A DNA stretch of 64,000 nucleotides from an uncultured delta proteobacterium (lineage in GTDB: Bacteria; Myxococcota_A; Polyangia; Polyangiales; B10-G4): contig CAVSGI010000001.1 of assembly GCA_963727445.1 (NCBI GenBank), positions 396 through 64,395 of the forward strand, written 5' to 3'. Of this stretch, positions 22,161-38,088 are shown piece after piece (positions within the stretch are counted from its first letter, which is position 1; every line of letters begins with the position of its first letter). Under the pieces are notes generated by a model, which was not told where the DNA came from, did not search any database, and worked only from the letters and a program-made list of their open reading frames with translations. A program made the translations under genes and the position numbers.

Positions 22161-23100
22161 TGAGACAGCTTCCATCAGGTAAATAGTGAGGGTGGAGGAG
22201 ATGACGTCAGCATGGATCAACACGTTCACGGATCGGTACAGGGCTCGCCAGGGCCGCGTCTAGGTCACGGCGCTTCATCGACACCTCGCCGGCGCAGATC
22301 TGGGCGACGATGGTCGACGAGGGCGTGTACGTCGCGTCGATGCGCACGATGTACCGTGTCCTGGGCGGCCAGGGCGAAGTCCGGGAGCGTCGCGACCAAC
22401 GCCGTCATCCTCCAGCGATGACGCCAGACGGTCCGAACCAAGCCTGGAGCTGGGACATCACGAAGCTCCGGGGACTACGCCCGTACGAGGCCTTCTACCT
22501 GTACGTGATCCTCGACATCTTCAGTCGCTTCGTCGTGGCGTGGATGCTCGCGAAGCACGAGCGGGCGACGTACGCGACGAATCTCATCGAGCGAGCCTGC
22601 GAGGCGGAGGGGATCGAACCGGGGCAGCTGGTCCTTCACTCCGATCGCGGCTCGCCGATGACCGCGAAGCCCGCGGTCGCGCTCATGGGTCAGCTCGGCA
22701 TCGACCCGAGCTACAGTCGGCCGCGAACGCCGAACGACAACCCGTACAGTGAGTCGCACTTCAAGACCTTGAAGTACCGGCCCGAGTACCCGGGCAGATT
22801 CGGCTCGTACGAGGACGCTCACGCGTACTGCTGCGACCTGTTCCCCTGGTACAACCACGAGCATCGGCACTCCGCGCTCTGCTGGCTCACGCCCGCTGCC
22901 GTCCATCACGGCCGCGCCGATGCCATCCTCGACGCGCGGCAGCGCACCATGCTCGAGGCCTACGATGCGCATCCTGAGCGCTTCGTCCACGGCCCCCCGC
23001 GGGTCCGCCGCCTCCCCGAAGAGGTGTGGATCAACCAGCCGACATCGGCGATTCAGATCGAAGGATCAGCTCACTGAAATTCATGAAACGAGCTGTCTCA
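22161..23100 (+). mobile_element. IS3-family insertion sequence remnant (about 0.94 kb, orfA and the 5' part of orfB deleted)
   Basis: Ends TGAGACAGCT (22161-22170) and AGCTGTCTCA (23091-23100) form a perfect 10-bp terminal inverted repeat (TG...CA). They extend imperfectly to about 30 bp. The element encloses an rve/DDE orfB fragment. No target-site duplication is seen. Confidence 0.75.
22205..23077 (+). pseudogene. IS3-family transposase OrfB (integrase core), 5'-truncated
   Basis: ..RFIDTSPAQIWATMVDEGVYVASMRTMYRVLGGQGEVRERRDQRRHP..PNQAWSWDITKL..FYLYVILDIFSRFVVAWM..LHSDRGSPMTA..SYSRPRTPNDNPYSESHFKTLKY..YNHEHRHSAL. DDE residues are present. There is no OrfA/HTH and no plausible native start. 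Confidence 0.85.
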
Positions 23101-23829: not shown

Positions 23830-24672
23830 GTGCGCCTGTCCGCTCTCGCTCTGGTCGTGGTGGCGCTCGCCCCGGCGAGCGGGGCGCTCGCGTCGGATTT
23901 CTGGGACGAGGTGAAGAGCCCCGGCCTGAGGAGCTACCGGCGTCACCTGGCGGAAGGCCGTGCTGCGGCTGCCGCCGGCCGCTTCGAGGATGCGCTGAGC
24001 GAATCCGCGGTGGCCATCGAGATCATCGAAGAGCGCCCGGACGCATGGATCCTCCGTGGGCGCGCCCTCGGTGAGCTCGGCCGTCTCGACGCGGCGACCG
24101 AAGCCTTCGCCCGCGCTCTCGCGATCGACGACGACGCCCTGTCCACGCCCGAGGAGGGCCGTCACGCAGCTCAGCTCCTCGCGGCGGGTGGGCGCTACGA
24201 TCTCGCGGCGCGCGTCCTGCCGCGCCTCCTCGGACACATGCAGGCGTCGAGCGCGCGCACCGAGCTCTATGCGCTCTATGGAGACGTGCTCTCCGCGCTC
24301 GGCCCGGAGCGACTGGGGGACGCGATCGCCGCCTATCGCGAGGCCGTGCGCCAGACGGGCCGCCACGATCCGCGGGCGGCCCTGGGGCTCGCGCTCTGTC
24401 TTCGCCGGGCGGATCGCGCGGCCGAGGCGCGCGACATCGCGCGCGGCGTGACGACCCGGGGGCACATCGACGGTCTGCTCCACGCGCTGCCGCTCCCCGA
24501 ATCGGAGCGCGCGGCGCGGCGCGCGGTGGCGCTCATGGCCATCGGTGATCGCGAAGGCGCCAAGCAGGCCTGGCGCGACGCATCCGCGGGAGAGTTCTTC
24601 GCGGACGAAGCGCGCGCCGAGCTCGCGGCCCTCGGAGGCCCCACGCGCCCGTCGCGGGAGGACGCAGAATGA
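23830..24672 (+). CDS. Secreted TPR-repeat protein
   Basis: Signal peptide MRLSALALVVVALAPASGALA. Repeated 34-aa-like helical units (AWILRGRALGELGRLDAATEAFARALAID..). GTG start. Confidence 0.65.
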   Translation: MRLSALALVVVALAPASGALASDFWDEVKSPGLRSYRRHLAEGRAAAAAGRFEDALSESAVAIEIIEERPDAWILRGRALGELGRLDAATEAFARALAIDDDALSTPEEGRHAAQLLAAGGRYDLAARVLPRLLGHMQASSARTELYALYGDVLSALGPERLGDAIAAYREAVRQTGRHDPRAALGLALCLRRADRAAEARDIARGVTTRGHIDGLLHALPLPESERAARRAVALMAIGDREGAKQAWRDASAGEFFADEARAELAALGGPTRPSREDAE

Positions 24673-25637
24673 AGCGTGCGCTGGCGCTCGCTTTCGTGGC
24701 GATCCTCGCGAGCCTCTTGCCTGTCCGCGACGCGCGCGCGCAGGAGGTCGACCCCGGCTTCTGGCGCTCGGTGCGCGAGCCCGGATACGGGCGCGCGATG
24801 CATCTGGCGCAGCAGGGCATGTACATCCTCGAGGTGCACGCGCAGCGGCTTCGCGATGGCACCGCAGGGCCGCACGAGCTCAACGCCATCCTCGAGAGCG
24901 CCATCGAGCGCTTCGATCTCGCGCACCGCCTGGCACCGAACGACCCGGTGATCCTCTATCTGCACGCGAGCGCGCTGTCTCAGTGGACCTCGCCCGATGG
25001 TGATCACGGAAAGACGCCGATGGACGACGACGCGCTCGCGATCTTCGAAGAGCTGCGCGAGCTCGACCCCACCTTCCTCGCGGACCGCGTGGCATTCACC
25101 GTCGGCATCATCTACACCCGGGCGCACCGCTTCGCCGAGGCCGCCGACGAATACCGCGTCGCCATCTCGCGTGCGATCGAGTCCGACTCGACCCACTGGT
25201 CGAACCTCGCCGAGGTGACCATGCTCGCGGGCGACGTCGAGGAGGCGGTGCGCCTCTTCGAGCGCTCCATCGAGATCGCAGACGCCATCGGTCAGTCGCG
25301 GGACCTCGCCCTCTGGGGGCTCGCCGTGGCGCTCGATCGCGTGGGCGAGCACCGCCGCGCACTCGAGGTCGCCGACGACGCGCTCACCAACGACCCCGAC
25401 GAGCCGATGGCAGCCCTGCGGAGCGAGGGCGTGTTCTACGAGCCCCCTCACGAGATCTACTGGTATGAAGGCCTCGGCCACGCCGCGCTGGCCCGCCGCG
25501 CCGAGACCGCGGAGAGCCGGGCGCTGCATGAAGCCCAGTCCCGCCAGTCCTTCCGGCGCTATCTCGCGGAGGGCGGCGATGCCTCGCCCTGGGCGGCGCT
25601 GGCCCAGCGCCACGCCGACGGGCTGATCGCTCGCTGA
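24669..25637 (+). CDS. Secreted TPR-like repeat protein
   Basis: Signal peptide MKRALALAFVAILASLLPVRDARA. Helical repeats. The start overlaps the upstream stop (ATGA at 24669). The N-terminal motif D(F/P)(W/GFW)..V..PG is shared with 23830..24672. Confidence 0.65.
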   Translation: MKRALALAFVAILASLLPVRDARAQEVDPGFWRSVREPGYGRAMHLAQQGMYILEVHAQRLRDGTAGPHELNAILESAIERFDLAHRLAPNDPVILYLHASALSQWTSPDGDHGKTPMDDDALAIFEELRELDPTFLADRVAFTVGIIYTRAHRFAEAADEYRVAISRAIESDSTHWSNLAEVTMLAGDVEEAVRLFERSIEIADAIGQSRDLALWGLAVALDRVGEHRRALEVADDALTNDPDEPMAALRSEGVFYEPPHEIYWYEGLGHAALARRAETAESRALHEAQSRQSFRRYLAEGGDASPWAALAQRHADGLIAR

Positions 25638-25676: not shown

Positions 25677-26336
25677 ATGCGCCGCGCTCTCCGCGCCAGC
25701 AGGCTCGTCGCCTCGGTGGTCGCCACCTTCATCTATCTCGCCTTCGAGGAAGCGGTGCGGGCCTCCCAGGAGCGCGCCGCCGAAGCCAGAACCGCCCTCG
25801 ACCAGCCCCGCGCCGACGCGACGAATACCCTGTCGGTGCACGATCGCCCCACCCTGCCCGGCACGGTGGAGGCGCCGATCCGAGACCTGGTGGCGATGTC
25901 GCCGGTGATCCGCGTGATCGAGCCCGCCGCTGCGCCTCCCCGCCCCGCGGTGCTCTTCGAGGCCCCCGATGCCCGGGAGCGCGAAGAGCGCGCGCCCGAC
26001 GTGGCCACGCTGCTGTCGACGCTGCGCCGCGACGTCGGCTGCACGACGAAGGCGAACGCCACGCACGAGGCGTGTCGCGCCGCGGAGACCCTCGGCGACC
26101 TCCTGGACCGCGACGCGGTGCTCGAGGCGCTCGAAGAGACCGTCACCGCGGCGCGCCGTCCGGATTGTGTGCGGCGCGCCTCGGCACGCGCCCTCGGACG
26201 ATCGTCCCGCGCCGCGGCCCGGAGCGCGCTCCTGCGCATGCTCGCCGTCGCCAGGGGCCGCGCCGAGTGGAGCGGCAGCCGGACGGAGAAGGATCTGGTC
26301 GCGCTCCTCCTCCGCACCCTCGACGCCGCGGCCTGA
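25677..26336 (+). CDS. Hypothetical membrane-anchored protein with a HEAT-like C-terminal repeat
   Basis: N-terminal anchor LVASVVATFIYLAF. The C-terminus ..EACRAAETLGDLLDRDAVLEALEE..VRRASARALGRS..ALLRML is reminiscent of HEAT/PBS-lyase repeats. The assignment is weak. Confidence 0.45.
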   Translation: MRRALRASRLVASVVATFIYLAFEEAVRASQERAAEARTALDQPRADATNTLSVHDRPTLPGTVEAPIRDLVAMSPVIRVIEPAAAPPRPAVLFEAPDAREREERAPDVATLLSTLRRDVGCTTKANATHEACRAAETLGDLLDRDAVLEALEETVTAARRPDCVRRASARALGRSSRAAARSALLRMLAVARGRAEWSGSRTEKDLVALLLRTLDAAA

Positions 26337-26383
26337 GCGCCCGATAATCCGCGCGCGGGGCGGAAGCGAGCCGAGGAGGGCCG

Positions 26384-27394
26384 GTGAGAGCGTGGAAAAT
26401 CGAAGGGAGCTTCGGCGTCGAGAACCTGAAGCTTCACGAGGAAGAAGACGAGGCGCCGCAGCACGGGCAGGTGCGCCTGTCGATGCGCGCCTGGTCGCTG
26501 AACTATCGCGACCTCCTGATGGTCCGGGGCGAGTACGACCCGCGCCTTCCGCTGCCGCACGTGCCCCTCTCCGACGGCGTCGGCGTGGTGGAGGCGGTGG
26601 GCTCGGGCGTGAGCCGGGTGGCCGAGGGCGACCGGGTGCTGCCGATCTTCGCGCAGAAGTGGTTCAGCGGCACGCCCACCAAGCGTGAGCTCATGTCGGC
26701 GCTCGGCGGCTCCATCCCCGGCACGCTCCGCGAATCCATGATCGTCTCCGAGGAGGCGGTGGTGAAGGCGCCCGCGCACCTGAGCGACGCCGAAGCGGCG
26801 ACGCTGCCCTGCGCGGCGCTCACCGCGTGGAGCGCGCTGGTCGAACAGGGCGAGCTCAAGGCTGGCGAGACGGTGCTCATTCAGGGCACGGGCGGGGTCA
26901 GCATCTTCGCGCTCCAGATCGCGAAGATGTGCGGCGCGCGCACCATCGTCACCTCGAGCAGCGAGGAGAAACGCCAGAAGGCGAAGGCGCTGGGCGCGGA
27001 CGAGACGATCGATTACCGCGCCGACCAGAGCTGGGGACGCACCGCCAAGGCGATGAGCGGCGGCGAAGGCGTCGACCACGTGATCGAGGTGGGCGGCGCG
27101 CGAACCATCGAGCAGTCCGTGCGCGCCGTGAAGCCGGGCGGCCAGATCTCCGTCATCGGCAACCTCTCCGGCAACACCGCCGAGGTGAACCTGGTCTCGA
27201 TCCTGATGCGCAACGTGCGCGTCCAGGGGGTCTTCGTCGGCCACCGCGATGGCCTCACCCGCATGTGCCGCGCCTTCTCTCAGCACACCCTTCGGCCGGT
27301 CGTGGACCGCACCTTCCCCTTCGAGCAAGCGCCCGCCGCATTCGAGCACCTGGCGAGCGCCGCCCACTTCGGCAAGATCGCCATCGCGCGTTGA
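26384..27394 (+). CDS. Medium-chain (zinc-type) alcohol dehydrogenase / NADPH:quinone oxidoreductase family protein
   Basis: MRAWKIEG..VRLSMRAWSLNYRDLLMVRG..PLSDGVGVVEAVGSGV..GDRV..; Rossmann motif VLIQGTGGVSIFALQIAK; 336 aa. Confidence 0.92.
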   Translation: MRAWKIEGSFGVENLKLHEEEDEAPQHGQVRLSMRAWSLNYRDLLMVRGEYDPRLPLPHVPLSDGVGVVEAVGSGVSRVAEGDRVLPIFAQKWFSGTPTKRELMSALGGSIPGTLRESMIVSEEAVVKAPAHLSDAEAATLPCAALTAWSALVEQGELKAGETVLIQGTGGVSIFALQIAKMCGARTIVTSSSEEKRQKAKALGADETIDYRADQSWGRTAKAMSGGEGVDHVIEVGGARTIEQSVRAVKPGGQISVIGNLSGNTAEVNLVSILMRNVRVQGVFVGHRDGLTRMCRAFSQHTLRPVVDRTFPFEQAPAAFEHLASAAHFGKIAIAR

Positions 27395-27433
27395 TCGAGG
27401 TGGTGGGACGGTCGTAGGCTCCCGCTCCTGAGC

Positions 27434-29293
27434 ATGAGCGTTCGGGACCCCTTCGCAGAGGACGCCAAGGCGCTCCACATCGAGATCGACGCGATCCTGG
27501 CGAAGGACCTCGACGACCTCGCCCTCCGAGACGCGCTCGAGGCGCTCGAAGAGCGCAAGGCGATCCACCTCGTCTACTACCGGCTGATCCGCTCGCTGCT
27601 CGAAAAGAACCCGGTGGTCTTCGGGCCCCTCGTCCGACCGCGCCTCGACTCCTGGGGCTACGACCGCAATGGGAAGTGGCATCACCCCTGGACCAACGAC
27701 GAGGGCAAGCGCGATCTCGCCTTCATCCTGAAGCTCGCCGAGGAGCGCGGGGATGACGCGCTCTTCAAGCGCGCGATGCTCGTCTATCTCGATCGCGCCA
27801 AGTGGAAAGACCGTAACGCGCTCTTTCAGAAGGAGCTCCTCGCCCGCCTCGAGGGAGCCGCCGAGCCTCACGAGCGCGCTTCCGTCTTGTCGCGCTTCGA
27901 CCGGCTGGGCGTCCTCGACGACGACACGGCCCTCACCATCTACGCGGCGGCGCCCCTCGCCGGCCGGTCCTTCATCAGCCGTCACCTCCCGTGGCGGCCC
28001 TGGGGCACGGACGACGTCGATTTGTTGCCGAAGCTCCTCGAGGAGACGCGCGATCGCGATCCCGACTTCTACTTCGAGCTCTACCGCCGCCTCGCGGGGG
28101 ATGCGACCTGGGCAAGGGACGTGGACGTCGTGCTCCGCGAGGCGAGCGACGACGCGCTCGCGGCGGAGCTCGAGAAGCTCCACCCGCAGCGCTACGTGAA
28201 GAACGCGGCGAAGGTCTTCGCCAAGGCGCTCAAGGAGCGCGACGACGCGGCGCTGCCCTACGTGAGCCGCCACGTGGACGCGGTCGTGCGGGGCTTCTTC
28301 GGCCGGGGCGAGTACGGGGATCTCCTGCGCATCGCCTATGACCGCGGCTACGACACGCTCTGGGCGGGGCTCCTGCGCCACGCCGCGCCGCCGAAGGACT
28401 GGAACGCCGAGGTCCGGCGGCTCGCAGAGGTCCGTCGTGACGGCGGCGATGCGCGACGGCGCCTGCTCCTCCTCGCCGGCGCCGGCCGCGAGCTCAGCCT
28501 GCCGGGCCTGGGCCTCGCGCGGTTGCAGCCCCTCGAGGACGACACGGCGGTGCTGCTCTTCGAGCGATATCCCGAGCTGCTCCGCGGGCCCTTCAAGCGC
28601 AACATCTTCGGGGGCTGGCACCAGCCCTACACGAAGCTCGTCGCGCGCGTCCTCGCGGAGGGGGACGAGCTCCTGATCGACTTCCTCGCGAGTCGCTTCG
28701 TCACCCGCGGCGGTCCCTACATGAACGAGAAGGTGCTGGCCTCCGCGGCGACGCTGTCGAAGCACTACGAAGCGCTCCGCGGCGACCCGGTCGCCTTCGC
28801 CGAGCGCGCGGCGAACGTCCTCGGCCAGGTGCCGCCCTTCGTGATCTACGCCTACGAGCTTCTGCTCGAGACGAACCGCCTGGCGCGGCTCCTCTACGAG
28901 CACGCGGCCCGGGACTATCTCGCGAGCCCCGTCGCGATCCGCGATCTTCTCGAGGCGCCCGAGATCCACGCGCAGCGCCTCGCGTTCCTCGCCCTCTCGC
29001 TCGACGACGAACGCGCCCGTACCCTCGGCGCGGCGAATCTCGATCTCCTCGCCGCGACGCTCCTGCGCCCACTCCACCGGCGGACCCGGCTCCTCGCCAT
29101 GGACGCGCTCGACAACGCCGCGCGCGATGAGGCGACGGCCGCGCGCGTTCTTCACACCGCGCGCGAGGCGATGTTCCTCCCCGACGTGCGTTACCCGAAG
29201 GAGGAGCTGGTCGGGCTCCTCGGGCGCATCCTCCATCGGCACGCGAGCCTCCGCAGCGAACGCGAGCGGCCGGTCGTCTACGGGAGGGCGTGA
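27434..29293 (+). CDS. Retron-associated large alpha-helical repeat protein (candidate ARM-like accessory protein)
   Basis: Intact 619-aa ORF. Leu/Ala/Arg/Asp-rich helical periodicity throughout, with no signal peptide or catalytic motif recognised. The stop overlaps the next start (ATGA at 29290). Confidence 0.7.
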   Translation: MSVRDPFAEDAKALHIEIDAILAKDLDDLALRDALEALEERKAIHLVYYRLIRSLLEKNPVVFGPLVRPRLDSWGYDRNGKWHHPWTNDEGKRDLAFILKLAEERGDDALFKRAMLVYLDRAKWKDRNALFQKELLARLEGAAEPHERASVLSRFDRLGVLDDDTALTIYAAAPLAGRSFISRHLPWRPWGTDDVDLLPKLLEETRDRDPDFYFELYRRLAGDATWARDVDVVLREASDDALAAELEKLHPQRYVKNAAKVFAKALKERDDAALPYVSRHVDAVVRGFFGRGEYGDLLRIAYDRGYDTLWAGLLRHAAPPKDWNAEVRRLAEVRRDGGDARRRLLLLAGAGRELSLPGLGLARLQPLEDDTAVLLFERYPELLRGPFKRNIFGGWHQPYTKLVARVLAEGDELLIDFLASRFVTRGGPYMNEKVLASAATLSKHYEALRGDPVAFAERAANVLGQVPPFVIYAYELLLETNRLARLLYEHAARDYLASPVAIRDLLEAPEIHAQRLAFLALSLDDERARTLGAANLDLLAATLLRPLHRRTRLLAMDALDNAARDEATAARVLHTAREAMFLPDVRYPKEELVGLLGRILHRHASLRSERERPVVYGRA

Positions 29294-30876
29294 TGTTCGT
29301 CGCCGTCGACTACGCGAGCCCCAGCGCTCTGGTCAGCACCCGCAAAGACAGCGCCCTCGATCTGCGGAGCGACGGCACCCGACCTGTGCGCCTGCACGCG
29401 CGCATCGAAGAGCCCTACGTGCTGCCGGTGCGCCTGGCGCTACGCGCGCTCGGCGAGGTGGTCTGGTCGGACGATCGCTGGGTGGACGACATGTGGTACG
29501 GGTTCATCCTCGACCCGGTCGTCACCGTCCACGACGACCGCGTCTTCTTCGAGGCGTTCAGCCAGGACCAGAGCGCCTACGGGTTGGTGATCCTCGATCG
29601 CGCCGTGCTCGAGACCGAGGGCGAGGTGGTCATCGGCACCACCAACGTGGACTTCACCGCCTGGCTCTGGGCCGCGCTCGGCGAGATGCGGAGCAGCCGA
29701 ACGACCTGGCTGCGCGTGGGGCCGGAGGGGGTCGAGGTGCGCACCAGCGGCGGCGGCAGCCGCTTCGAGCCCAAGGTGGAGATCCCCGACCACTGGGTGC
29801 GCGGCTTTCTCCAGATGCAGGCGGCGGCGGCGATGCCGGGCACGCGCCTCGTGTTGAAGCCGGTGGACCTGCTCTCCGCGATCCGCTACCTCCGCTACAC
29901 CAAGGCCAAGGTGAGCCCCCGCGCCCTGCGCTACGAGATGCCTCCCGGCGAGGACGCGCGGTTGGTGATCGAGCCCTTCGAGCACGTGGTGCCGCTGCGC
30001 GGAGCGGACCACGGCCGTGAAGAGGAGCGCGTGATCCGCACCTGGGGCCGGCGCCGGCTCCGCCTCCTCGAGCCGCTGCTCCCCTACGCGGACGAGGTGC
30101 GCGTCTACCTCAAGGGTCGCGCGCTGCCGAGCTTCTACGCCGCCCAGCTGCCCGGGGTGACCTTCGTCCTCGGCCTCACCGGCTGGACCGCGAACAGCTT
30201 CACCCGGAGCGGGGGGCACGATCTGGCCACGGGCATCGAAGATGCGGACGAGCGGCTGGTGAACGCCGCGATCGAGGCGCTGCGCGCGCGGCAGGCGGCG
30301 ACGGCGGAAGAGATCGCGCGCGCCATCTCGGCGCCGCTGCCCGAGGTGGACCGCGCGCTCGCGCGCCTCTGCCGGCGCGGCCGGGCCATCTTCGACGTCG
30401 AGGCGCGCGCCTATCGCCATCGGGAGCTCTTCGCCGAGCCGCTGGATCTGAAACGGGAAGCGGAGCTCTTCCCGCCGGACCGGCGACGCGCCGAAGCGCG
30501 CAAGCTCCTCGACAGCGGGGCGGTCGAAGTCGAGTCGGTCGCCGTGGAGCAGACCAGGAAGGTCCGAAAGCTGAAGACGCCCGAGGGTCGGGTGACCCGC
30601 GAGGTGGTGCACCGCGACCATCGGGTGCGCGGGAAGATGCCCGGCGTGACCCGCACCGAGATCGTCGTCGCCGAGAGCGGCCGCGTGATCTTCGGCACCT
30701 GCAGCTGCCCCTTCTTCGCGGACAACCTCCTGAACCGTGGACCCTGCGAGCACATGGTGGCGCTCCTCGAGGCGAGCGCGAAGGAGCGCAAGGACGCGCC
30801 GACCTCCACTGAGGCGTCGGGCGACGCGAGCCAGCCAGCGCCGCCGCGACACGACAACCACGGAGAGGACGCATGA
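29290..30876 (+). CDS. Retron-associated SWIM zinc-finger protein
   Basis: 528 aa. The C-terminal CSCPFFADNLLNRGPCEHMVAL fits the SWIM CxCx(n)CxH signature. It ends 25 nt before the msr/msd inverted repeat. Confidence 0.85.
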   Translation: MMFVAVDYASPSALVSTRKDSALDLRSDGTRPVRLHARIEEPYVLPVRLALRALGEVVWSDDRWVDDMWYGFILDPVVTVHDDRVFFEAFSQDQSAYGLVILDRAVLETEGEVVIGTTNVDFTAWLWAALGEMRSSRTTWLRVGPEGVEVRTSGGGSRFEPKVEIPDHWVRGFLQMQAAAAMPGTRLVLKPVDLLSAIRYLRYTKAKVSPRALRYEMPPGEDARLVIEPFEHVVPLRGADHGREEERVIRTWGRRRLRLLEPLLPYADEVRVYLKGRALPSFYAAQLPGVTFVLGLTGWTANSFTRSGGHDLATGIEDADERLVNAAIEALRARQAATAEEIARAISAPLPEVDRALARLCRRGRAIFDVEARAYRHRELFAEPLDLKREAELFPPDRRRAEARKLLDSGAVEVESVAVEQTRKVRKLKTPEGRVTREVVHRDHRVRGKMPGVTRTEIVVAESGRVIFGTCSCPFFADNLLNRGPCEHMVALLEASAKERKDAPTSTEASGDASQPAPPRHDNHGEDA

Positions 30877-30901
30877 GCGTCCTGTCGATAGAGATGATCA
30901 C

Positions 30902-31057
30902 GACCGGTGAGGAGCTCGAAGCGAGATCAGCCTTCTGCGCGGTGTTTCGCCGTGCTGGCGTATTGAGCTCATCACATCGCCGCGGTCCCAGCGCACGAAA
31001 CGCCGGGAGCCACGGGTCCAGGGCCCCGAGAGTGGTCCTTCGGGTTCCTCACCGGTC
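30902..31057 (+). ncRNA. msr-msd: Retron msr-msd non-coding RNA (template/primer for msDNA)
   Basis: A 20-bp inverted repeat (30902-30921 / 31038-31057) closes a 116-nt structured region 22 nt upstream of a retron RT. Both DNA mismatches become G.U pairs only in the + strand transcript. AAGCGAGA follows the 5' arm. Internal hairpins lie at 30937-30955 and 30980-31015. Confidence 0.7.
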
Positions 31058-31078
31058 ACCTTCTCGTCGGGCGGGCGC

Positions 31079-32359
31079 ATGAGCCTCCTCAGGCGCTTCC
31101 TCTCCTTCTTGTGGCGCCTCTTCTTCGCCTCGAAGAAGCTCGAGCGGCGCACGACGCGCCACGGCCAGGGCGACCTCGATCAGACCCACGAGGAGGTCGA
31201 TCTCTCGGGCGGTCCGCTCAAGCCCGCGCATCGACGCAGGGCGCTCCACGACCCGCGTCTTCTTCCAAAGCCCGCGCGAAAGAACCCCTGGGAGAAGCCG
31301 CCGAAGGTGATGGACGCCGACGAGGCCGGCCGCCTCTTCGCGCCGACGATGCGCACCAAGAGCCGGCGGCTGCGCACCCTCGTCGCCGACGAGGAGCAGC
31401 TCGCGCGTCACGACCTCCCCGCCTGGAAGAGCGAGGCCGAGGTCGCAGCGGCCCTCGGCGTGACCCGCGGCGAGCTGCGTCATTTCAGCATTCATCGCCA
31501 GCGTGAGCGCACCCCCCACTACGTGACCTTCGCCGTGCCCAAGCGGAGCGGAGGCGAGCGATTGATCTGCGCGCCGAAGGCGCAGCTCAAGGCCTTGCAG
31601 CGAACGCTCCTGAAGGAGCTCATCGAACACCTTCCCGTTCACGACGCGGCCCACGGCTTCCGCAAGGGCCGCTCGGTGCGCACCGCCGCCGAGGCGCACG
31701 TCGGCCGCGCGGTCGTCGTGCGCATGGACCTGCGCGACTTCTTCGGAACAGTCACCTTCGTGCGCGTGCGCGGTTACCTGGTGGCGATGGGTTATGGCTA
31801 CGAGGTCGCCACCATCCTCGCGGTGCTGATGACGGAGGCGCCACGCCAGCCGGTGGCCGTGGGAGACGACGTCTTCCACGTCCCCGTCGGCCCGCGGAGC
31901 GCGGTGCAAGGTGCGCCCACCAGCCCCGCGATCTGCAACGCGATCGTCCACAAGCTCGACGCGCGCCTCTCGGGCCTCGCCGCCGCGCTCGGGTTTCGGT
32001 ACACCCGCTACGCGGACGACCTCACCTTCTCCAGCGACGATCCCGAACGGGTCGGCCGGTTGATGCACGCCGTGCGGGAGATCGTGCGAGACGAGGGCTT
32101 CGCGCTCAACCGCGACAAGACGCGGGTCATGCGCAAGGGCGGCCACCAGACGGTCTGTGGCGTCACCGTCAACGAGACGCTCGGGCTCAGCCGAAAGACG
32201 CGCAAGAAGCTGCGCGCGATGATCCATGCGGAGAAGCAGAGTCGTGACCGTGGCGAGGCCGACGCCTCGCGCACGGCGATGATCGAGGGCTGGCTCGCCT
32301 ATCTGTCGATGCTCAATGAAGAGCAGGCCGAGGCGCTCCGCGTGCGCTGGGTCAGCTGA
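31079..32359 (+). CDS. ret: Retron-type reverse transcriptase
   Basis: YVTFAVPKRSGGERLICAPKAQLKALQRTLL (RT1-2), AHGFRKGRS, RMDLRDFFG, LPQ-type block VQGAPTSPAICNAIVHKLD (retron NAxxH), FRYTRYADDLTFS (YADD), VCGVTVN (retron VTG-like block). There is a roughly 110-aa N-terminal extension. 426 aa. Confidence 0.93.
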   Translation: MSLLRRFLSFLWRLFFASKKLERRTTRHGQGDLDQTHEEVDLSGGPLKPAHRRRALHDPRLLPKPARKNPWEKPPKVMDADEAGRLFAPTMRTKSRRLRTLVADEEQLARHDLPAWKSEAEVAAALGVTRGELRHFSIHRQRERTPHYVTFAVPKRSGGERLICAPKAQLKALQRTLLKELIEHLPVHDAAHGFRKGRSVRTAAEAHVGRAVVVRMDLRDFFGTVTFVRVRGYLVAMGYGYEVATILAVLMTEAPRQPVAVGDDVFHVPVGPRSAVQGAPTSPAICNAIVHKLDARLSGLAAALGFRYTRYADDLTFSSDDPERVGRLMHAVREIVRDEGFALNRDKTRVMRKGGHQTVCGVTVNETLGLSRKTRKKLRAMIHAEKQSRDRGEADASRTAMIEGWLAYLSMLNEEQAEALRVRWVS

Positions 32360-33167
32360 GCTCGTCGTTCAACAGGTCGAGTCGGGCGAGGCCCGGCTTC
32401 AGCTGCTCGCGCCAGCACCGCTCGAAAACCAGCACCTGACGCACGGGCGAGAAGAGCCCGAGGGCGGCGCGCGCCGGCTCGGGGTGGGCGTCGAGGGTGC
32501 GCGCGTCCTCGCCCACCTCGCGAAGGATCCGCGCGGCCTGCTCGCGATGCGGCGCGACGGTGGTCGCCACCAGATGACGCCAACTCGTGAGCGTCGAGGG
32601 ACGAAAGCGCTTCAGCGACTCCTCGACGTAGGCCCAACCGAATCGCTGGTGGCCCTCTTCGTCGGCGACGGTCGCGTCCAGCACCCGGCGCACCGCACCA
32701 TCGGGACAGCGCTCGCGCAGGTCCTCCACGAACGCCACCGAGATGGTCTCGTTGATGAGGAGCATCGAGATCGCCGTGGTGAGCGCGCGCTCGGGCATGG
32801 GCGCGCGGAGGTAGCGCTCGGGATCGCGCAGCTCGACGGGGTCCGGAAGCATCGGCGTCGCCCCGAGGGCCTCGCAGAGCGCCGCGCAGAGCGCCGTGTG
32901 CCGGATCTCGTCCACCACCAGGTCCGCCGCGCCCGCGTAGACCTCCAGAGGATCGCCCGCGCCGACGACCTCGGAGGCGAAGCGCGTCATGATCTGGATG
33001 GAGCGGAACTCGGTGCGCACCCGCTGCTGCCAGGTTCGGCGCGCCTCCTCGAGGAGCGACGGATCGTGCGCCTGCGGATCGAAATCCGACAGGTCGACGC
33101 CATCCCCCAGCACCTCGGCTGAGAGCGCCGCGAAGGGTGGTCCAGCGCGCATGAGCGGACGGGCCAT
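32352..33167 (-). CDS. Ferritin-like (di-iron carboxylate type) domain protein
   Basis: Two ExxH motifs in helical context (LVVDEIRHTA, VADEEGHQRFGW) plus LINETISVAFVEDL. 271 aa. The 3' end overlaps the RT 3' end by 8 nt (convergent). Confidence 0.6.
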   Translation of the reverse strand: MARPLMRAGPPFAALSAEVLGDGVDLSDFDPQAHDPSLLEEARRTWQQRVRTEFRSIQIMTRFASEVVGAGDPLEVYAGAADLVVDEIRHTALCAALCEALGATPMLPDPVELRDPERYLRAPMPERALTTAISMLLINETISVAFVEDLRERCPDGAVRRVLDATVADEEGHQRFGWAYVEESLKRFRPSTLTSWRHLVATTVAPHREQAARILREVGEDARTLDAHPEPARAALGLFSPVRQVLVFERCWREQLKPGLARLDLLNDELS

Positions 33168-33171
33168 GCGA

Positions 33172-33675
33172 TCAGCCCGCGTCTGACATCATCGCCGCGT
33201 CCGCCTCCACCGAACCGTCCCCGGAGGGACCGACGTCGGACGCATCGGACATCCCCGCATCGGACGGGGCCGCGTCGGAACCCGCATCGCCGCCCGGGCA
33301 GGAGACGGCGGGGCCATCGAGGCAGGTCCCGTCGCCGCAGTCGGTGTACAGGCCGTAGTTGCAGATGGTGTCCGGCGGGCAGTAGCAGGTGTCGATCATC
33401 CCGGCGCTACAGCATGGCTCCCACGTGCCGCCGTCCCCGCCTCCGTCGACGGTCGCGTCCCCGCTCGGATGCGAGTCGCCGCACCCCGTGAACAAGAGTG
33501 CGCTCCCCGAAAGGATCAGCGACAAGAGCAGCGGCCAGGCGCTGCCCGCCACGCACCCGGCACCGAAGAAGACCAGCGCGAAGACAAGAAGGGCGAAGGG
33601 GAGACGGGAGGCGTGGCGAACCATGTCGGACACCGGAGCAACGATCGTACCGTATCCGGGCTGCGGAATTGCCAC
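33172..33675 (-). CDS. Small membrane-anchored Cys-rich protein
   Basis: Two hydrophobic spans (LPFALLVFALVFFGAGC, WPLLLSLILSGSALLF) and the Cys cluster WEPCCSAGMIDTCYCPPDTICNYGLYTDCGDGTC. An alternative start is the ATG at 33624. It ends 4 nt before the ferritin-like gene. Confidence 0.5.
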   Translation of the reverse strand: MAIPQPGYGTIVAPVSDMVRHASRLPFALLVFALVFFGAGCVAGSAWPLLLSLILSGSALLFTGCGDSHPSGDATVDGGGDGGTWEPCCSAGMIDTCYCPPDTICNYGLYTDCGDGTCLDGPAVSCPGGDAGSDAAPSDAGMSDASDVGPSGDGSVEADAAMMSDAG

Positions 33676-33714: not shown

Positions 33715-34566
33715 TCAGCTGCGACCGGTGACCTGGTGGGCCACGCGCCCGACGAAGAAGGGACCCATCTGAACGATGTAGGTCGAGGTCTGCTTCGTCT
33801 TCCGCATGGTCTGGACCACGTGGGAGAGGCGGTGGAGGTTGTCGCCGATGAGGCCGATGACGAACTCGTTGTCGCCCTGGTCGAGGCCGTGACAGGCGAG
33901 CCGGATGTCGTGGGCCAGGTCCTTGGCCCCATAAGCGCGGCCGATGATGGCGTGCTCCTTGAGGATCTTGCCCTGCTCGCGAGCGTCGAGCTTCTCGAAC
34001 TCACCGCTGCGTCGAAGCGGATACCAGACGTGCCACGGCCACTTGTCGTTGAGGGCGGTCTCCTGCGGACGCTCGAGGATCCAGTACTCGAGGTCCGGCT
34101 CGTAACCGCTCGAATACGTGCGACCGAACATCGTGTAGGACGGCCGAAGCGTGAGCTGCGCGAGGCGCGTGTCCCGGAAGATCGGCCGGATGGTGGTGAC
34201 GAAGTGGTCGGGGTTCTCGCTCCAGGTGAGCAGACCGATGGCGCGCGGATCGTTGACGTCCTCGTAGACCACCCCGGCGGCGCCGGCTTCCTCGAGCGCG
34301 GAAGCGATCGTCTTTGCAGCGTCCTCGGGATCGGCGCCGGGCGCGCAATCGAAGATCAGGAGCTGCATGAAGAGGCGCCGGTCCATCACCTGGCGCTTGC
34401 CGTCCTTCTCACCGCCGTACTCGTTGATGTCCACCTTCATCAGGTCGGTGGCGCCGCCGCTCTTCGGCGACTCGGTGCGAACCGGCGCAGACGGCTGGGC
34501 GGCGGCTGGGCCTCCGACGCCGGCGGGCGGACGCTCCGAGGGATTGAACTCGCTCCTGTTGCTCAT
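33715..34566 (-). CDS. Chlorite dismutase (Cld/HemQ) family protein
   Basis: The in-frame ATG at 34566 gives MSNRSEFNPS... WHVWYPLRRSGEFEKLDAREQGKILKEHAIIGRAYG, DIRLACHGLD..DNEFVIGLIG and LSHVVQTMRKT match the Cld-family C-terminal core. The track ORF upstream of 34566 is Arg-rich junk. Confidence 0.75.
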   Translation of the reverse strand: MSNRSEFNPSERPPAGVGGPAAAQPSAPVRTESPKSGGATDLMKVDINEYGGEKDGKRQVMDRRLFMQLLIFDCAPGADPEDAAKTIASALEEAGAAGVVYEDVNDPRAIGLLTWSENPDHFVTTIRPIFRDTRLAQLTLRPSYTMFGRTYSSGYEPDLEYWILERPQETALNDKWPWHVWYPLRRSGEFEKLDAREQGKILKEHAIIGRAYGAKDLAHDIRLACHGLDQGDNEFVIGLIGDNLHRLSHVVQTMRKTKQTSTYIVQMGPFFVGRVAHQVTGRS

Positions 34567-34598
34567 GCGCCGGAGCTTACCCCACATCTTCGCTGCTG

Positions 34599-35123
34599 CT
34601 AACGGGGCGTCGGCCGTCCCAAGCGCTCTGCGGGCTCGGGCTCCTGGCTCTCCTGGGCCCAGGGATCGAGGACCTCGCTGGTGGCCGGCATCGGCCACGG
34701 CTCGTCGCGGGATTCGAAGGGGTCGAGGACCTCGCTCGTCACGGCCCAGTGCCTGCGCTCCATGCTGGCGCGGAGAAAGTCGGCGACGGCGAGGCCGATC
34801 CACGCCGCGCCCCGCTCACCCGAAGGAGCCGCGACGTGGGTGAGACGCCGCCGGCCGGCGGGTTCCTGAAAGAAGAGCTGCGCCGAGCGTCCGTCGCGCG
34901 CGACCACTACTGCGAGCGTGCCCCGCGTGTGCTCGACGCCGGCGTCGAGGAGCGAGACCACCGGAATGTTCAGCGCCCGCTCGACGACTTCGCGCACGCG
35001 CTGGGCGCCGACCTGTGTGCTCTGAGACTCCACGGTGACCGCGAGTGGTTCGTCCGCGCGCGCCCGGCTCACCCAGAGGCTGCCCAGACAGAGTGAGATG
35101 ACGAAGACCGTGACCGTTCTCAT
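34599..35123 (-). CDS. Hypothetical secreted protein (175 aa)
   Basis: The in-frame ATG at 35123 gives the signal peptide MRTVTVFVISLCLGSLWVSRARA. The rest of track ORF 34599..36581 is antisense shadow of the M2 peptidase gene. Confidence 0.5.
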   Translation of the reverse strand: MRTVTVFVISLCLGSLWVSRARADEPLAVTVESQSTQVGAQRVREVVERALNIPVVSLLDAGVEHTRGTLAVVVARDGRSAQLFFQEPAGRRRLTHVAAPSGERGAAWIGLAVADFLRASMERRHWAVTSEVLDPFESRDEPWPMPATSEVLDPWAQESQEPEPAERLGRPTPR

Positions 35124-35186: not shown

Positions 35187-37025
35187 ATGAAGCCGCCCTT
35201 CCTCGTCGCCGTCCTCGTGACCGCGCTCCTCGCCTCCGCCTGCGGTACGCCCGGCGCGGGCCAGCCCACCACGCCGCCGCCGCCCACGCGGACGGTCCAG
35301 GACGAAGCCAACGACTTCCTGGCCTATTACACGCCGCTCATGGTGGGCCTCTACACGGAGATGGTCCGGGCGAGCTGGACCGCGAGCACCGACGTCAGCG
35401 AAGAGCACACCGGTCTGCGCACCGGCGCCGACACGGTCTGGGGTGCCTTCGTCGGCAGCGGCCTGGTGATCGACCGCGCGCGCACCCTCCTCACCCACGA
35501 GAGCGAGCTCGACGAGCTCACGGTGCGGCAGCTCCGCATGGTGCTCGAGAACGCCGCCGTCGCGCCCCAGACCAACCCAGAGCTCGCGCGCCGGCGCGTC
35601 GCAGTGGAGAGCGCTCAGTCGGCCATCCTCGACGGCTTCCAGTTCTGCCTCGATCGCCGGGGCGAGACCTGCCGCCGCCCGCTCACCACCAACGACATCG
35701 ACCGCGTGCTGGTGGAGTCCGACGACTTGCGCGAGCGGCTTCGATACTGGGACGCATCCAAGGAGGTCGGGGTGGCGCTGCGGCCCGGCCTCTCGGAGCT
35801 GCGCGACCTCCGCAACGCGACCGCGCGAGAGATGGGCTTCGCCGACTTCTTCGCCTATCGCATCAGCAACTACGGGATGACGCCGGACGAGATGATGGCA
35901 CTTCTCGATCGCATTCTCGAGGAGGTGCGTCCGCTCTTCGACGCGCTCAGCTGCTGGACGCGCTACCAGCTCGCCGAGCGCTTCGGCCAGCGCGGCGAGG
36001 TTCCAGCGCGGATCCCCGCGCATTGGATCGGCAACCGCTGGGCCCAGGCGTGGCCCGGCCTGGTCGAGACCGTGGACATGGACGCGCTGGTCGAGGACAA
36101 GGAGCCGGAGTGGATCGTCCAGCAGGCAGAGCGCTTCTACGTCTCCTTGGGCTTCCCCGATCTGCCCCAGACGTTCTGGGAGAACAGCGACCTCTACCCG
36201 GTCCCCGAGGGTGAGGAGCGCGAAAAGAACGATCACGCCAGCGCCTGGCACGTCGATTTGAACCAGGACGTGCGCAGCCTGATGAGCGTCGAGCCGAACT
36301 GGCGCTGGTTCGGCACCACCCACCACGAGCTCGGCCACATCTACTACTACCTGGCGTACTCCAACCCCAACGTGCCGCCGCTCCTTCGCGAGGGCGCGAA
36401 CCGCGCCTTTCACGAAGCGGTGGGCAACCTGATCGAGCTGGCCAGTGGTCAGATGCCCTACCTGCACCAGGTGGGGCTCATGCAGGAGGGGCAGGAGCCC
36501 GACCAGATCCAGGTGCTCCTCGACCGTGCCCTGACCGGCCCCATCGTCTTCTTGCCCTTCGCCATCGGCACCATGAGCCACTTCGAGAAGGCGCTCTACT
36601 CGGATGGTCTACCCGACGCGCAGTTCCAGTCGTATTGGTGGGAGCTCGCCGGCCAGTATCAGAACGTGGCGCCTCCCGACGAGCGCCCGGCCGACGGATG
36701 CGATGCGTGCAGCAAGACGCACATCATCGACGACCCGGGTGAGTACTACGACTACGCCCTCGCAGAGGTGCTCGTGTACCAGTTCCACGATCACATCTGC
36801 CGCGAGATCCTCCACCAGGACCCCCACGCCTGTAACTACTACGATCACCCCGAGGTCGGCGCGTACCTCTACGACATCCTGCGCGTCGGCGCGACCAAGG
36901 ACTGGCGGCAGGTGCTGATGGAGGCCACCGGCTCGGAGCTCAGCGCCCAGCCGATGCTCGAGTACTACCGGCCGCTCTTGGAGTATCTGAACGCACAGAA
37001 CGGCGACCGCTGCAGCGGCGACTAG
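35187..37025 (+). CDS. Peptidase family M2 (angiotensin-converting-enzyme-like peptidyl-dipeptidase) lipoprotein
   Basis: Lipobox MKPPFLVAVLVTALLASAC. The zinc site HHELGHIYYYLAY closely mirrors the ACE HHEMGHIQY. A downstream EAVGNLIELA supplies the third ligand Glu. 612 aa. Confidence 0.88.
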   Translation: MKPPFLVAVLVTALLASACGTPGAGQPTTPPPPTRTVQDEANDFLAYYTPLMVGLYTEMVRASWTASTDVSEEHTGLRTGADTVWGAFVGSGLVIDRARTLLTHESELDELTVRQLRMVLENAAVAPQTNPELARRRVAVESAQSAILDGFQFCLDRRGETCRRPLTTNDIDRVLVESDDLRERLRYWDASKEVGVALRPGLSELRDLRNATAREMGFADFFAYRISNYGMTPDEMMALLDRILEEVRPLFDALSCWTRYQLAERFGQRGEVPARIPAHWIGNRWAQAWPGLVETVDMDALVEDKEPEWIVQQAERFYVSLGFPDLPQTFWENSDLYPVPEGEEREKNDHASAWHVDLNQDVRSLMSVEPNWRWFGTTHHELGHIYYYLAYSNPNVPPLLREGANRAFHEAVGNLIELASGQMPYLHQVGLMQEGQEPDQIQVLLDRALTGPIVFLPFAIGTMSHFEKALYSDGLPDAQFQSYWWELAGQYQNVAPPDERPADGCDACSKTHIIDDPGEYYDYALAEVLVYQFHDHICREILHQDPHACNYYDHPEVGAYLYDILRVGATKDWRQVLMEATGSELSAQPMLEYYRPLLEYLNAQNGDRCSGD

Positions 37026-38088
37026 CTAGAAGCTATCTCAAAACTCGTGGGATCTAAGTCTGCGAGGATTAAGAAGAAAGCGTTGGGGGATCGACGTCGG
37101 ATCGGTTTTCTGATCTACGGTCTGAATGGATCTGACCGATCAGCAGTGGAAAATCCTGGAGCCCCTTCTTCCTGAGCGCGACAGACGTAGGGGCAGCCCA
37201 GGAAGGCCACGACGGTCTGCTCGTGAGGTGCTCGACGGCGTGCTGTGGATTCTACGCACCGGTGCGCAGTGGGGCGATCTGCCAGGACGTTATCCGCCGT
37301 ACCAGACATGCCACCGACGCTATCAGCAGTGGGTCGACGAAGGTGTGATGGAGCGAATGCTGCGAGCGTTGGCTGAAGACCTACGGGATCGCGGGAAGCT
37401 GGACCTGACAGAAGGATTCATCGACGGCACCCACGCGGGGGCCAAAAAGGGGGGCCTTGCGTTGGAAAAACTCGTCGCGGGAAGGCCACCAAGATCATGG
37501 CAGTCGCAGACGGCAATGGTCTTCCTATCGCCGCTCTCGATTGCGAGTGGTCAGCGTCATGAGGTCACGCTCGTCGACGAAACGTTAGACGCGGCCTTCT
37601 TGGACGAGCTGCCGCAACGTTTGATCGGAGACAAGGCGTACGACAGTGTTCGCGTGGCTGCAGAACCTCCGACGGCTCGTTACCCGCTACGAACGCCGGC
37701 CAGAAAACTTCCTGGGCTTCGTGCGGCTCGGCTGTCTCGTCATCCTGCTCAGACAGTTCTGAATCACCCAGTTCGAGAAACTCGTCCGAGATTGATTTAT
37801 CAGGCGCCGGAGGGAGGGTCGCACCCCGGGGTGTCCGGCCGTGCCAACGCGCACGCAGTGTCGCACCCGCGTTGGCACGGACGGACAGGGGACCTTGCGC
37901 GAGCGCTCTCTAGTCGGCAAGAAGGCGTAGCGGTGCCGTCAGGCGACGCGGAGCTGGATTGCCGACGAGACCACGTTGCTGGTCTTGCCTCGCGCTCGCA
38001 TCTGCAAGGTCCCCGAGCCCCGGGGTGGGACCCTCCCTTCGGCGCGGTCATGCAGTTCGCGAGCGCTGAGTTTTGAGATAGCTTCTAG
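37026..38088 (+). mobile_element. IS5-family (IS427-like) insertion sequence, decayed
   Basis: Perfect 21-bp terminal inverted repeats CTAGAAGCTATCTCAAAACTC (37026-37046) and GAGTTTTGAGATAGCTTCTAG (38068-38088). The outer CTAG can equally be read as a 4-bp target duplication. The element encloses a broken DDE transposase gene. Confidence 0.85.
37126..37762 (+). pseudogene. IS5/IS427-group transposase, frame-shifted and internally deleted
   Basis: [70 protein letters not shown].. is the typical N-terminus. The frame slips at gccAAAAAGGGGGGcc and returns near 37545 (..[18 protein letters not shown].. is in another frame). DKAYDS is joined directly to [38 protein letters not shown], so about 45 aa of the catalytic core are missing. 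Confidence 0.85.

Follow-up and report, generated by a model that had tools for sequence, protein, structure and literature searches.

A stretch of 64,000 nucleotides from an uncultured delta proteobacterium (contig CAVSGI010000001.1; hereafter the window) carries at positions 27434-32359 four consecutive parts which, as judged by sequence comparison and structure prediction, very probably form a complete and functional type XIII retron of the Mx65 sub-family that makes multicopy single-stranded DNA (msDNA). The parts are an ARM/HEAT-type protein (P1), a protein ending in a SWIM zinc finger (P2), the msr-msd gene for a non-coding RNA (ncRNA) and a reverse transcriptase (RT). A first reading of the same DNA, called here the original prediction, had matched the gene set to type XIII of the 2020 retron census, a class with an ARM plus winged-helix-SWIM accessory pair, and this assignment was borne out by the RT_XIII and SWIM_XIII scores, the zinc finger, an acidic pattern in P2 and the ARM/HEAT model of P1. 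We put the chances that the retron serves in anti-phage defence at about even, and we suggest, tentatively, that its effector step could depend on a sliding-clamp fold predicted for P2. The four parts are as follows.

27434-29293, + strand: P1, predicted ARM/HEAT-type alpha-solenoid, AgmJ-like, 619 aa; first gene of the operon (open reading frame (ORF) call)
29290-30876, + strand: P2, predicted clamp-fold/winged-helix/SWIM protein, 528 aa, or 527 from the ATG at 29293 (PADLOC, Pfam)
30902-31057, + strand: msr-msd ncRNA gene, 156 nt long including both arms (a1 and a2) of the inverted repeat
31079-32359, + strand: retron RT, 426 aa (PADLOC RT_XIII, Pfam RVT_1)

Our ORF call agreed with the original prediction on the coordinates and lengths of all three protein genes. 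The first two genes had been described as coupled through an ATGA at 29290; they do overlap, but the junction reads GTGATG (29290-29295), and the shared bases are GTGA if P2 starts at the GTG or TGATG if it starts at the ATG. Public gene calls place the start at the ATG at 29293, giving a protein of 527 aa. The four co-oriented parts are most likely transcribed as a single unit.

A run of the PADLOC and retron RT models, as proposed with the original prediction, gave the best scores to RT_XIII and SWIM_XIII. The RT scored 437.7 bits against RT_XIII (E 1.4e-131), ahead of RT_other (318.7), RT_outgroup (304.1) and, lower still, the models of all other retron types, and its 25 best PADLOC matches were all retron RT models; P2 scored 471.1 bits against SWIM_XIII (E 9.4e-142). 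The closest solved structures of the RT were likewise all retron RTs, namely Ec86 (7v9u, E 4e-30), Ec78, Ec67, Ec83 and Eco8. By its best-scoring model the RT is assigned to the type XIII RT clade (clade 10).

Alignment with Ec86 allowed us to place the retron-specific motifs of the RT. The palm motif YADD was found where it had been announced, at residues 311-314 (32009-32020), within RYADDLTFS (residues 310-318), and the long N-terminal extension is also real, adding ~100 aa relative to Ec86 (residues ~1-140), with conservation starting at residue ~41. By contrast, the 'retron-diagnostic NAxxH' had been read from SPAICNAIVHKLD, where NAIVH occurs by coincidence: this segment aligns with SPKLANLICSKLD of Ec86, just past motif 4 (QGAPxSP). 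Region X itself, the counterpart of NATPH in Ec86, is AAEAH at residues 203-207 (31685-31699), which keeps A-x-x-H but has Ala in place of Asn. NAxxH lies between motifs 2 and 3 in 14 of 16 validated retron RTs, the Asn being replaced in Mx65 and Ec48 (PMC6868368). Among the relatives of the window RT most have NAxxH, Myxococcus has GAAPH, and several carry G, A or S for the Asn. The VTG-like block (region Y) had been located at the right position, aligned with VTGLVIS of Ec86, but it reads VCGVTVN, with VCG at residues 359-361 and Cys for Thr, where most relatives have VTGVTVN or VTGVVVN and some VAG. We also observed an ~18-aa insertion relative to Ec86 between motifs 3 and 4 (residues ~250-275, EAPRQPVAVGDDVFHVPVGPRSAV), which is conserved within the sub-family.

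The same arrangement of genes recurs in other genomes. Scanning one genome per species, we retrieved 66 related loci through P1. Many lie in Myxococcota (Myxococcus, Archangium, Corallococcus, Hyalangium, Haliangium and metagenome-assembled genomes (MAGs)); others were found in Planctomycetota, in Hyphomicrobium and other Alphaproteobacteria, in Steroidobacter and Opitutaceae, and in a Vulcanimicrobiota MAG, with Gammaproteobacteria and Verrucomicrobiota among the groups represented. The order P1, SWIM gene, RT, on one strand, was seen in each of these 66 loci that had enough downstream sequence, gaps falling solely at contig ends, and the two upstream genes are thus syntenic with an RT homolog in every long-enough locus, as the original prediction needed. 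In these loci the SWIM homologs are 45-66% identical to P2 over long alignments and the RT homologs 52-61% identical to the window RT, and the overlap or near-abutment of the P1 and P2 genes is conserved, with, for example, a 4-nt overlap in C. macrosporus. None of the window's neighbour genes recurs beside any related locus; the four-part unit therefore appears as a self-contained module in varying genomic contexts. Such differing flanks among phyla would fit horizontal spread of the module, as for defence modules. No P2 homolog was detected in 50,697 phage records, and plasmid records yielded only distant P2 relatives, on megaplasmids and chromids.

Between the P2 and RT genes lies the inverted repeat on which the original prediction had based its msr-msd assignment. 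Its arms, 30902-30921 and 31038-31057, are 20 nt each, 90% complementary and separated by 116 nt; as described, the repeat covers 156 nt, and 21 nt separate its end from the RT start codon. This 156-nt stretch folds at -87.4 kcal/mol, compared with -66.3 +- 4.4 for shuffled sequences (z = -4.8), and none of 200 shuffles was as stable. Within and between the arms, the following elements could be delineated.

30902-30929, + strand: a1 arm, made up of a distal part (30902-30921) and the proximal stem P0 (30925-30929, GATCA)
30930, + strand: putative priming (branch) guanosine, the first unpaired base past the a1/a2 stem, in the context CAGC
30937-30955, + strand: H1, msr hairpin GCGCGGUG-UUU-CGCCGUGC, with the invariant GGUGYUUCGCC motif
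30957-30981, + strand: H2, variable region
30982-31013, + strand: H3, conserved msd (template) hairpin with the loop CGYRCGNAACG
31013-31028, + strand: H4, small hairpin CGGG-UCCAGGGC-CCCG, beside the putative start of reverse transcription
31033-31057, + strand: a2 arm, made up of the proximal stem P0' (31033-31037, TGGTC) and a distal part (31038-31057)

In most related loci an inverted repeat of 13-41 nt per arm, spanning ~150-200 nt, begins directly past the SWIM stop codon. The ~105-nt ncRNA core between the arms was present in the window and in 53 of the 54 related loci examined, with its motifs, an invariant A-G-C, GGUGYUUCGCC, CGYRCGNAACG and UCCNNNGC; as to exceptions, one locus (L015) missed one anchor pattern, and two (L064 and L066) failed solely because the base after AGC is A. 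Because a MAFFT alignment of whole ncRNAs set the variable arms out of register, and RNAalifold then recovered only part of the structure, we aligned 49 distinct sequences with the core as anchor. In the resulting alignment A-G-C at the priming site is invariant (49 of 49). The a1/a2 arms are only 29-38% identical, about chance level, and still complementary across loci, whereas the core is 71-74% identical and its template (msd) part, the most conserved, 76-79%. The three genes stay below the msd, their nucleotide identity reaching 67-70% in the best local matches.

The alignment also supports the pairing itself. In the structure given above 87% of cells are paired, compared with 34-52% after a shift of the 3' partners by 1-3 columns; double-sided changes occupy 113 cells, against 39+-5 in shuffles, and the covariation score is 0.217, against 0.122 shuffled, with none of 500 shuffles reaching it. 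The P0 pairs covary (column 23/135, for example, holds CG 30, GC 14 and UA 4 times), and in H1 98.9% of cells are paired, with double-sided changes at four pairs. Since internal loops of the distal a1/a2 stem vary in length and do not permit column scoring, that stem was assessed locus by locus. The priming contexts reported by Simon et al. (2019, PMC6868368) are CAGC for Mx162 and Sa163 and GAGC for Mx65. Taken together, these comparisons show that the ncRNA structure is conserved, with a variable but always complementary stem through which the guanosine of the invariant A-G-C (30930) comes to face the template's 3' end.

The hairpins differ in the kind of wobble pair that they tolerate. H1 has 359 Watson-Crick cells, 73 G·U and 2 A·C, and H4 has 127, 60 and 0; the H3 stem, in contrast, has 371 Watson-Crick, 7 G·U and 32 A·C, and the outer part of H3 has 125, 0 and 68, these being counts from related sequences, hence not independent events, in a pattern that spans several columns and clades. 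An A·C mismatch on the sense strand corresponds to a G·T wobble on the complementary strand, and H3 therefore looks selected as DNA, that is, as msDNA, while G·U with essentially no A·C in H1 and H4 points to selection on the RNA strand. The pattern thus suggests that H3 is under selection in the reverse-transcribed msDNA strand, with which its position inside the template part agrees, and indicates that H1 and H4 are under selection as RNA.

Type XIII was defined by Mestre et al. (2020, PMC7736814) as a clade 10 RT with a 'cluster 114' protein and usually a preceding HEAT/ARM protein, and was given the members Mx162, Mx65, Sa163 and Ne144. The same study describes in the cluster 114 protein a DEDE motif (Dx7Dx4Ex30-32Dx37E), a winged helix and a C-terminal CxCx12CxH SWIM finger, assigns the ARM proteins to clusters 216, 259, 1688 and 3262, and reports that the RT co-evolves with the ARM protein (PMC7736814). 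Among our loci, the one from M. xanthus (L022, 736-5649) encodes an RT of 427 aa, has the priming context GAGC and the region X GAAPH, and places 106 nt between the priming G and the base before the stem, against 103 nt in the window (G30930 to 31032). We take the Mx65 RT to be 427 aa long and its msDNA to carry 65 nt of DNA on a 49-nt RNA, linked at G4; with these dimensions the 106 nt would fit 65 + 46 with a short overlap. From the GAGC context, the region X that lacks Asn and the presumed 427-aa length, we concluded that the sequence of L022 represents the Mx65 retron and that the window most plausibly holds a diverged member of the same sub-family.

Mx65 (Retron-Mxa2) and the window share the gene order (AgmJ-like gene, SWIM gene, ncRNA, RT), an RT of nearly the same length (427 and 426 aa, ~57-58% identical) without Asn in region X, and an ncRNA with the same core, the same helices and a priming G in the corresponding place. 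They differ in that P1 is only ~40% identical, the genomic flanks are different, GAGC and VTG in Mx65 stand against CAGC and VCG in the window, the arms are unrelated in sequence (16 nt against 20 nt), and the window ncRNA has a 3-nt deletion before H1. All three marks of the sub-family, an AgmJ-like first gene, the ncRNA core and an RT of ~425-435 aa, are found in the window. Mx162 (Retron-Mxa1) and Sa163 (Retron-Sau1) are also type XIII retrons, with N-terminally extended RTs and CAGC priming as in the window, but their ncRNA is much longer (a 241-nt precursor and 162-nt msDNA), a size seen in none of the 66 P1-retrieved loci. With the more distant Ec86 (Eco1, type II-A) and Ec78 (type I-A) the window shares the RT core and the logic of an a1/a2 stem with an AGC priming G; the effectors there are a nucleoside deoxyribosyltransferase-like toxin (Ec86) and the PtuAB ATPase/HNH pair (Ec78), whereas the partners in the window are a predicted ARM/HEAT solenoid and a predicted clamp-fold/winged-helix/SWIM protein, without a known catalytic domain.

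Relatives of P2 also occur in other company. In Clostridium butyricum and Methylobacterium, which have distant type XIII systems, the gene for a SWIM-family protein with 29-35% identity to P2 stands immediately before that for a retron-type RT (32-47% identical), but neither has a detectable P1 homolog or the Mx65-type ncRNA motifs; in C. butyricum a large upstream gene occupies the P1 position. The megaplasmid of this species (L067, 1603-7852) holds a Firmicutes version of the system, in which overlapping genes encode, in the same order as in the window, a hypothetical protein of 979 aa, a SWIM-family protein of 602 aa and an RT of 502 aa. A plasmid of Streptomyces sp. NBC_01426 (L068, 4767-8827) pairs a SWIM protein (~29% identical to P2 over ~80% of its length) with a large, uncharacterised DUF6493 protein, in reversed gene order relative to the window and with neither RT nor ncRNA, which indicates that the SWIM module exists outside retrons too. 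Homology of P1 to DUF6493 or to the 979-aa Clostridium partner was looked for and not found.

Two of the rival explanations would deny the locus an active retron, and the RT and ncRNA data bear on both. That the RT belongs to another class, be it group II intron, diversity-generating retroelement (DGR), abortive infection (Abi) or defence-associated RT (DRT), with the inverted repeat incidental, we regard as next to impossible. Nothing speaks for it beyond the generic RVT_1 domain (Pfam, 1e-23), and the 200-440 bits from retron models compare with 72.7 bits from the NCBIfam group II intron model (cut-off 300) and less than 30 bits from Drt models; no intron RNA or other Rfam family was found at E<=1 over 26-34 kb, and the ncRNA is conserved and covarying in more than 50 loci. 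Model scores and nearest structures thus keep the RT apart from the group II, DGR and Abi enzymes, a grouping that would have refuted the original prediction. Slightly more credible, and still improbable, is an inactive relic, its RT having ceased to make msDNA after the loss of retron-specific residues, as AAEAH for NAxxH and VCG for VTG might be taken to mean. Against decay speak three intact, full-length ORFs, the intact YADD, and an ncRNA in which core, priming A-G-C and arm complementarity are all preserved; moreover, several relatives carry G, A or S at the position of the Asn, and Mx65, a validated msDNA producer, also lacks it (PMC6868368).

The partner proteins bear on what the retron might do. 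P2 was expected to be a 528-aa protein ending in a SWIM finger, and Pfam SWIM indeed matched at residues 465-495 (30682-30774; 6e-5); the finger, CSCPFFADNLLNRGPCEH, has the form C-S-C-(12 residues)-C-E-H, that is, CxCx12CxH. P2 has more than 1000 homologs, with 55-81% identity among the best 120. An AlphaFold 2 (AF2) model, with a predicted local distance difference test score (pLDDT) of 77.7 and a predicted template modelling score (pTM) of 0.78, divides the rest of the protein as follows.

~29380-30180, + strand: predicted PCNA-like clamp-fold domain of P2, residues ~30-296
~30211-30420, + strand: winged helix of P2, from the model and from weak MarR/AdcR and eS25 profile matches
between the winged helix and the SWIM finger, + strand: beta-rich region of P2 in the predicted model

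In the model, residues ~30-296 form two domains of repeated beta-alpha-beta-beta-beta units. Foldseek matched P2 to PCNA in the PDB with E 3e-8, probability 1.00 and a template modelling (TM) score of 0.65-0.73 normalised to PCNA; the 454 PDB matches at E<=1e-3 were headed by archaeal and eukaryotic PCNAs, the African swine fever virus (ASFV) clamp and the E. coli beta clamp, and the top 50 were all clamps. In BFVD the top matches that carry a name were PCNAs of viruses, beta clamps of phages, and processivity or replication proteins of herpesviruses. The two-domain fold of DNA sliding clamps is therefore predicted for the N-terminal half of P2, a whole PCNA monomer superposing on residues ~30-296. 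P2 should not be filed as a member of the clamp family: unlike in PCNA and beta clamps, the chain of P2 also includes a winged helix and a SWIM finger, and numerous acidic and polar positions that have no counterpart in clamps are invariant. The clamp-like domain occurs only in this SWIM family (826 representative clusters at E<=1e-3, mostly of 450-670 aa). No paper on a clamp-like retron partner was found in the literature searched.

The acidic pattern of P2 reads D75-x7-D83-x4-E88-x32-D121-x38-E160, the last spacing being one residue above the published x37. Among 27 P2 homologs D75, D83, E88 and D121 are invariant and E160 is nearly so; these residues lie in domain 1. Many invariant Arg and Lys residues stand in or beside helices of the clamp-like half in the model. 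Residues 1-29 (29290-29376) are predicted to be disordered (pLDDT ~30-40), yet contain an invariant D-Y-A-x-P-S, and this N-terminal peptide is a candidate short linear motif for binding an ARM/HEAT partner.

P1 had no match in Pfam, PADLOC (to E 10) or NCBIfam, and has 41 homologs of 35-66% identity. The all-helical protein of 619 aa that had been foreseen is almost all-helical in a confident AF2 model (pLDDT 91.2), which shows a helical solenoid with two small beta hairpins. Foldseek returned only generic ARM/HEAT solenoids with low TM scores (best E 1.5e-3), among them beta-catenin, importins, CAND1 and condensin HEAT subunits; on this model P1 is an ARM/HEAT-type scaffold without a specific relative. 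Its Myxococcus and Corallococcus homologs are named 'gliding motility protein' (NCBI) and 'Adventurous gliding motility protein AgmJ' (UniProt). In C. macrosporus (L070, 6001-10970) the AgmJ gene overlaps a 534-aa gene by 4 nt, and a 166-nt gap then precedes a 427-aa RVT_1 gene, an arrangement that makes the gene annotated agmJ the first gene of an Mx65-type retron operon. The agmJ-annotated gene in Myxococcus and Corallococcus thus heads an Mx65-type retron operon. The name reportedly goes back to a transposon screen by Youderian and co-workers in 2003. The literature searched contained no paper on AgmJ in Myxococcus or on a connection between agmJ and retrons. Thus, the statement of the original prediction that the class has no known phenotype holds in that we found no functional study in the literature searched, but has to be qualified by the motility annotation of P1 relatives. 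One could speculate that the AgmJ phenotype is indirect, the insertion being polar or unbalancing the complex, with slow growth scored as poor spreading.

From these features a possible course of events can be proposed. By homology with Mx65 and other retrons, the RT would prime from the 2'-OH of G30930 and copy ~60-65 nt leftwards from ~31032, stopping inside the variable H2; RNase H would strip most of the template, leaving a branched RNA-DNA molecule whose DNA folds as the H3 hairpin. This nearly invariant msDNA could be the specific ligand of the equally conserved P2, which may grip it by its basic clamp-like N-terminal module, the winged helix and the SWIM finger. Grooves of ARM/HEAT proteins typically bind extended peptides, and P1 might scaffold the complex, for example by binding the N-terminal extension of the RT or the disordered N-terminal peptide of P2. 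As in other retrons, the accessory proteins would be held in check by the complex of msDNA and RT, which would thus act as a guard. Once the msDNA is altered or removed by a phage factor, the clamp-like P2, released or redirected, could disturb DNA replication or repair and halt infection. A clamp-based effector step of this kind is possible, though we would not call it probable. In its general form, that type XIII acts through a sliding-clamp mimic and not through an enzyme toxin, the outcome being either a block of phage replication or a domesticated myxobacterial role that would account for the AgmJ motility annotation, we consider the idea a minority prospect.

Several observations weigh against a working defence retron with a clamp-like effector. 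The clamp fold rests on a predicted structure of pLDDT 77.7, and a profile of 27 P2 homologs run against all PDB sequences found no clamp at E<=1, nor did Pfam find a clamp domain. No recognisable toxin, nuclease, NADase or membrane effector domain was seen in P1 or P2 by Pfam, PADLOC or NCBIfam. The RT departs from the retron consensus, with Ala for Asn in region X and VCG for VTG, and the retron is flanked by ordinary metabolic genes and not by a defence island. The very high conservation of the msd, together with the reported vertical inheritance in myxobacteria, is unusual for defence retrons, and in the literature searched we found no study that challenged a type XIII retron with phage.

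Some of these observations feed a serious alternative, namely that the retron has been domesticated for a housekeeping or developmental role, its msDNA-protein complex serving the DNA metabolism or the gene regulation of the host, and that adventurous gliding motility in myxobacteria suffers when the first gene is lost; we hold this to be possible, at rather less than an even chance. P1 relatives are annotated AgmJ, one of them directly inside a retron operon, the msd is more conserved than coding DNA, and toxin-like domains, a defence island and homologs in the 50,697 phage records were all lacking. Among the retron types, moreover, only type XIII shows a correlation between its phylogeny and 16S, suggestive of vertical inheritance, and domestication is raised as a possibility by Mestre et al. 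themselves (PMC7736814). On the other hand, a transposon in the agmJ gene would have polar effects on all the parts that follow (SWIM gene, ncRNA and RT), slow growth or toxicity could mimic reduced colony spreading, and the patchy occurrence of the module over at least five phyla, with flanks that always differ, fits horizontal transfer. To our knowledge, early deletions of myxobacterial retrons gave no obvious phenotype, and all retron types with a reported function known to us act in anti-phage defence. A further alternative to the clamp-based step is that P2 is a DEDE nuclease derived from a transposase, an origin suggested for it in 2020, and acts as the catalytic effector by cutting DNA once something triggers the retron. 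Its acidic pattern is close to the published one, with four invariant residues, and the invariant polar residues of domain 1 would suit an active site; but the predicted fold is a two-domain clamp in searches of both PDB and BFVD and not the RNase H-like fold of DDE/Mutator transposases, and neither the 27-homolog profile against PDB sequences nor Pfam and NCBIfam gave a transposase or nuclease match. We consider such a nuclease unlikely. A DEDE-transposase origin of this region of P2 was likewise unsupported, given the predicted clamp fold and the absence of RNase H-like or transposase matches.

Myxobacterial retrons were the first retrons discovered and have been known since the 1980s. In the literature searched we found no reported trigger, effector activity or confirmed role for type XIII. 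The retron in the window adds one more member to a class defined in 2020; for experiments, M. xanthus Mx65 is the better choice. Testable handles are provided by the predicted clamp fold of the SWIM partner, by the msd, which is nearly invariant across phyla and bears the DNA-strand wobble signature, and by agmJ as the first gene of the operon, and the clamp idea, if true, would add a new kind of retron effector and might explain an old motility mutant.

The genes around the retron, as found in the window, are listed here.

22310-23077, + strand: insertion sequence (IS) integrase with rve core, upstream of the retron
23830-25637: two TPR proteins, upstream of the retron
25677-26336: gene of no assigned function, upstream of the retron
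26384-27394: zinc-type dehydrogenase, ending 39 nt before P1
32352-33167, - strand: gene of no assigned function, downstream of the RT
33172-33675: Cys-rich protein, downstream of the RT
33715-34803: chlorite-dismutase-family protein, downstream of the RT
35187-37025, + strand: M2 (angiotensin-converting-enzyme-like) peptidase (Pfam E 2e-102)
37126-38076, + strand: IS4/5-family transposase with DUF4096 domain, downstream of the RT

The transposase genes at 22310-23077 and 37126-38076 bracket ~14 kb that hold the retron; since they belong to different families, they do not form a composite transposon, but they may mark a variable region. A scan of 26200-32700 found a sole sigma-70-like site, at 26320-26348 (+), upstream of the dehydrogenase gene, and no intrinsic terminator, such scans being weakly informative in G+C-rich DNA. 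It is possible that P1 is co-transcribed with the preceding dehydrogenase gene, which is not kept beside the retron in other genomes. Long antisense ORFs run over the retron genes at 25733-29242 (-, 1169 aa), 29440-30861 (-, 473 aa) and 31049-32227 (-, 392 aa); their translations are Arg- and Gly-rich, and they look like high-G+C artefacts, not genes. No tRNA gene and no clear marker gene were found within the 64-kb window, whose high G+C content, TPR proteins and Ser/Thr kinase are compatible with Myxococcota without proving such an origin. Farther from the retron, the window also encodes a fused E1 alpha/beta component of a 2-oxoacid dehydrogenase (16903-19113, +) and a Ser/Thr protein kinase (51183-52805, +).

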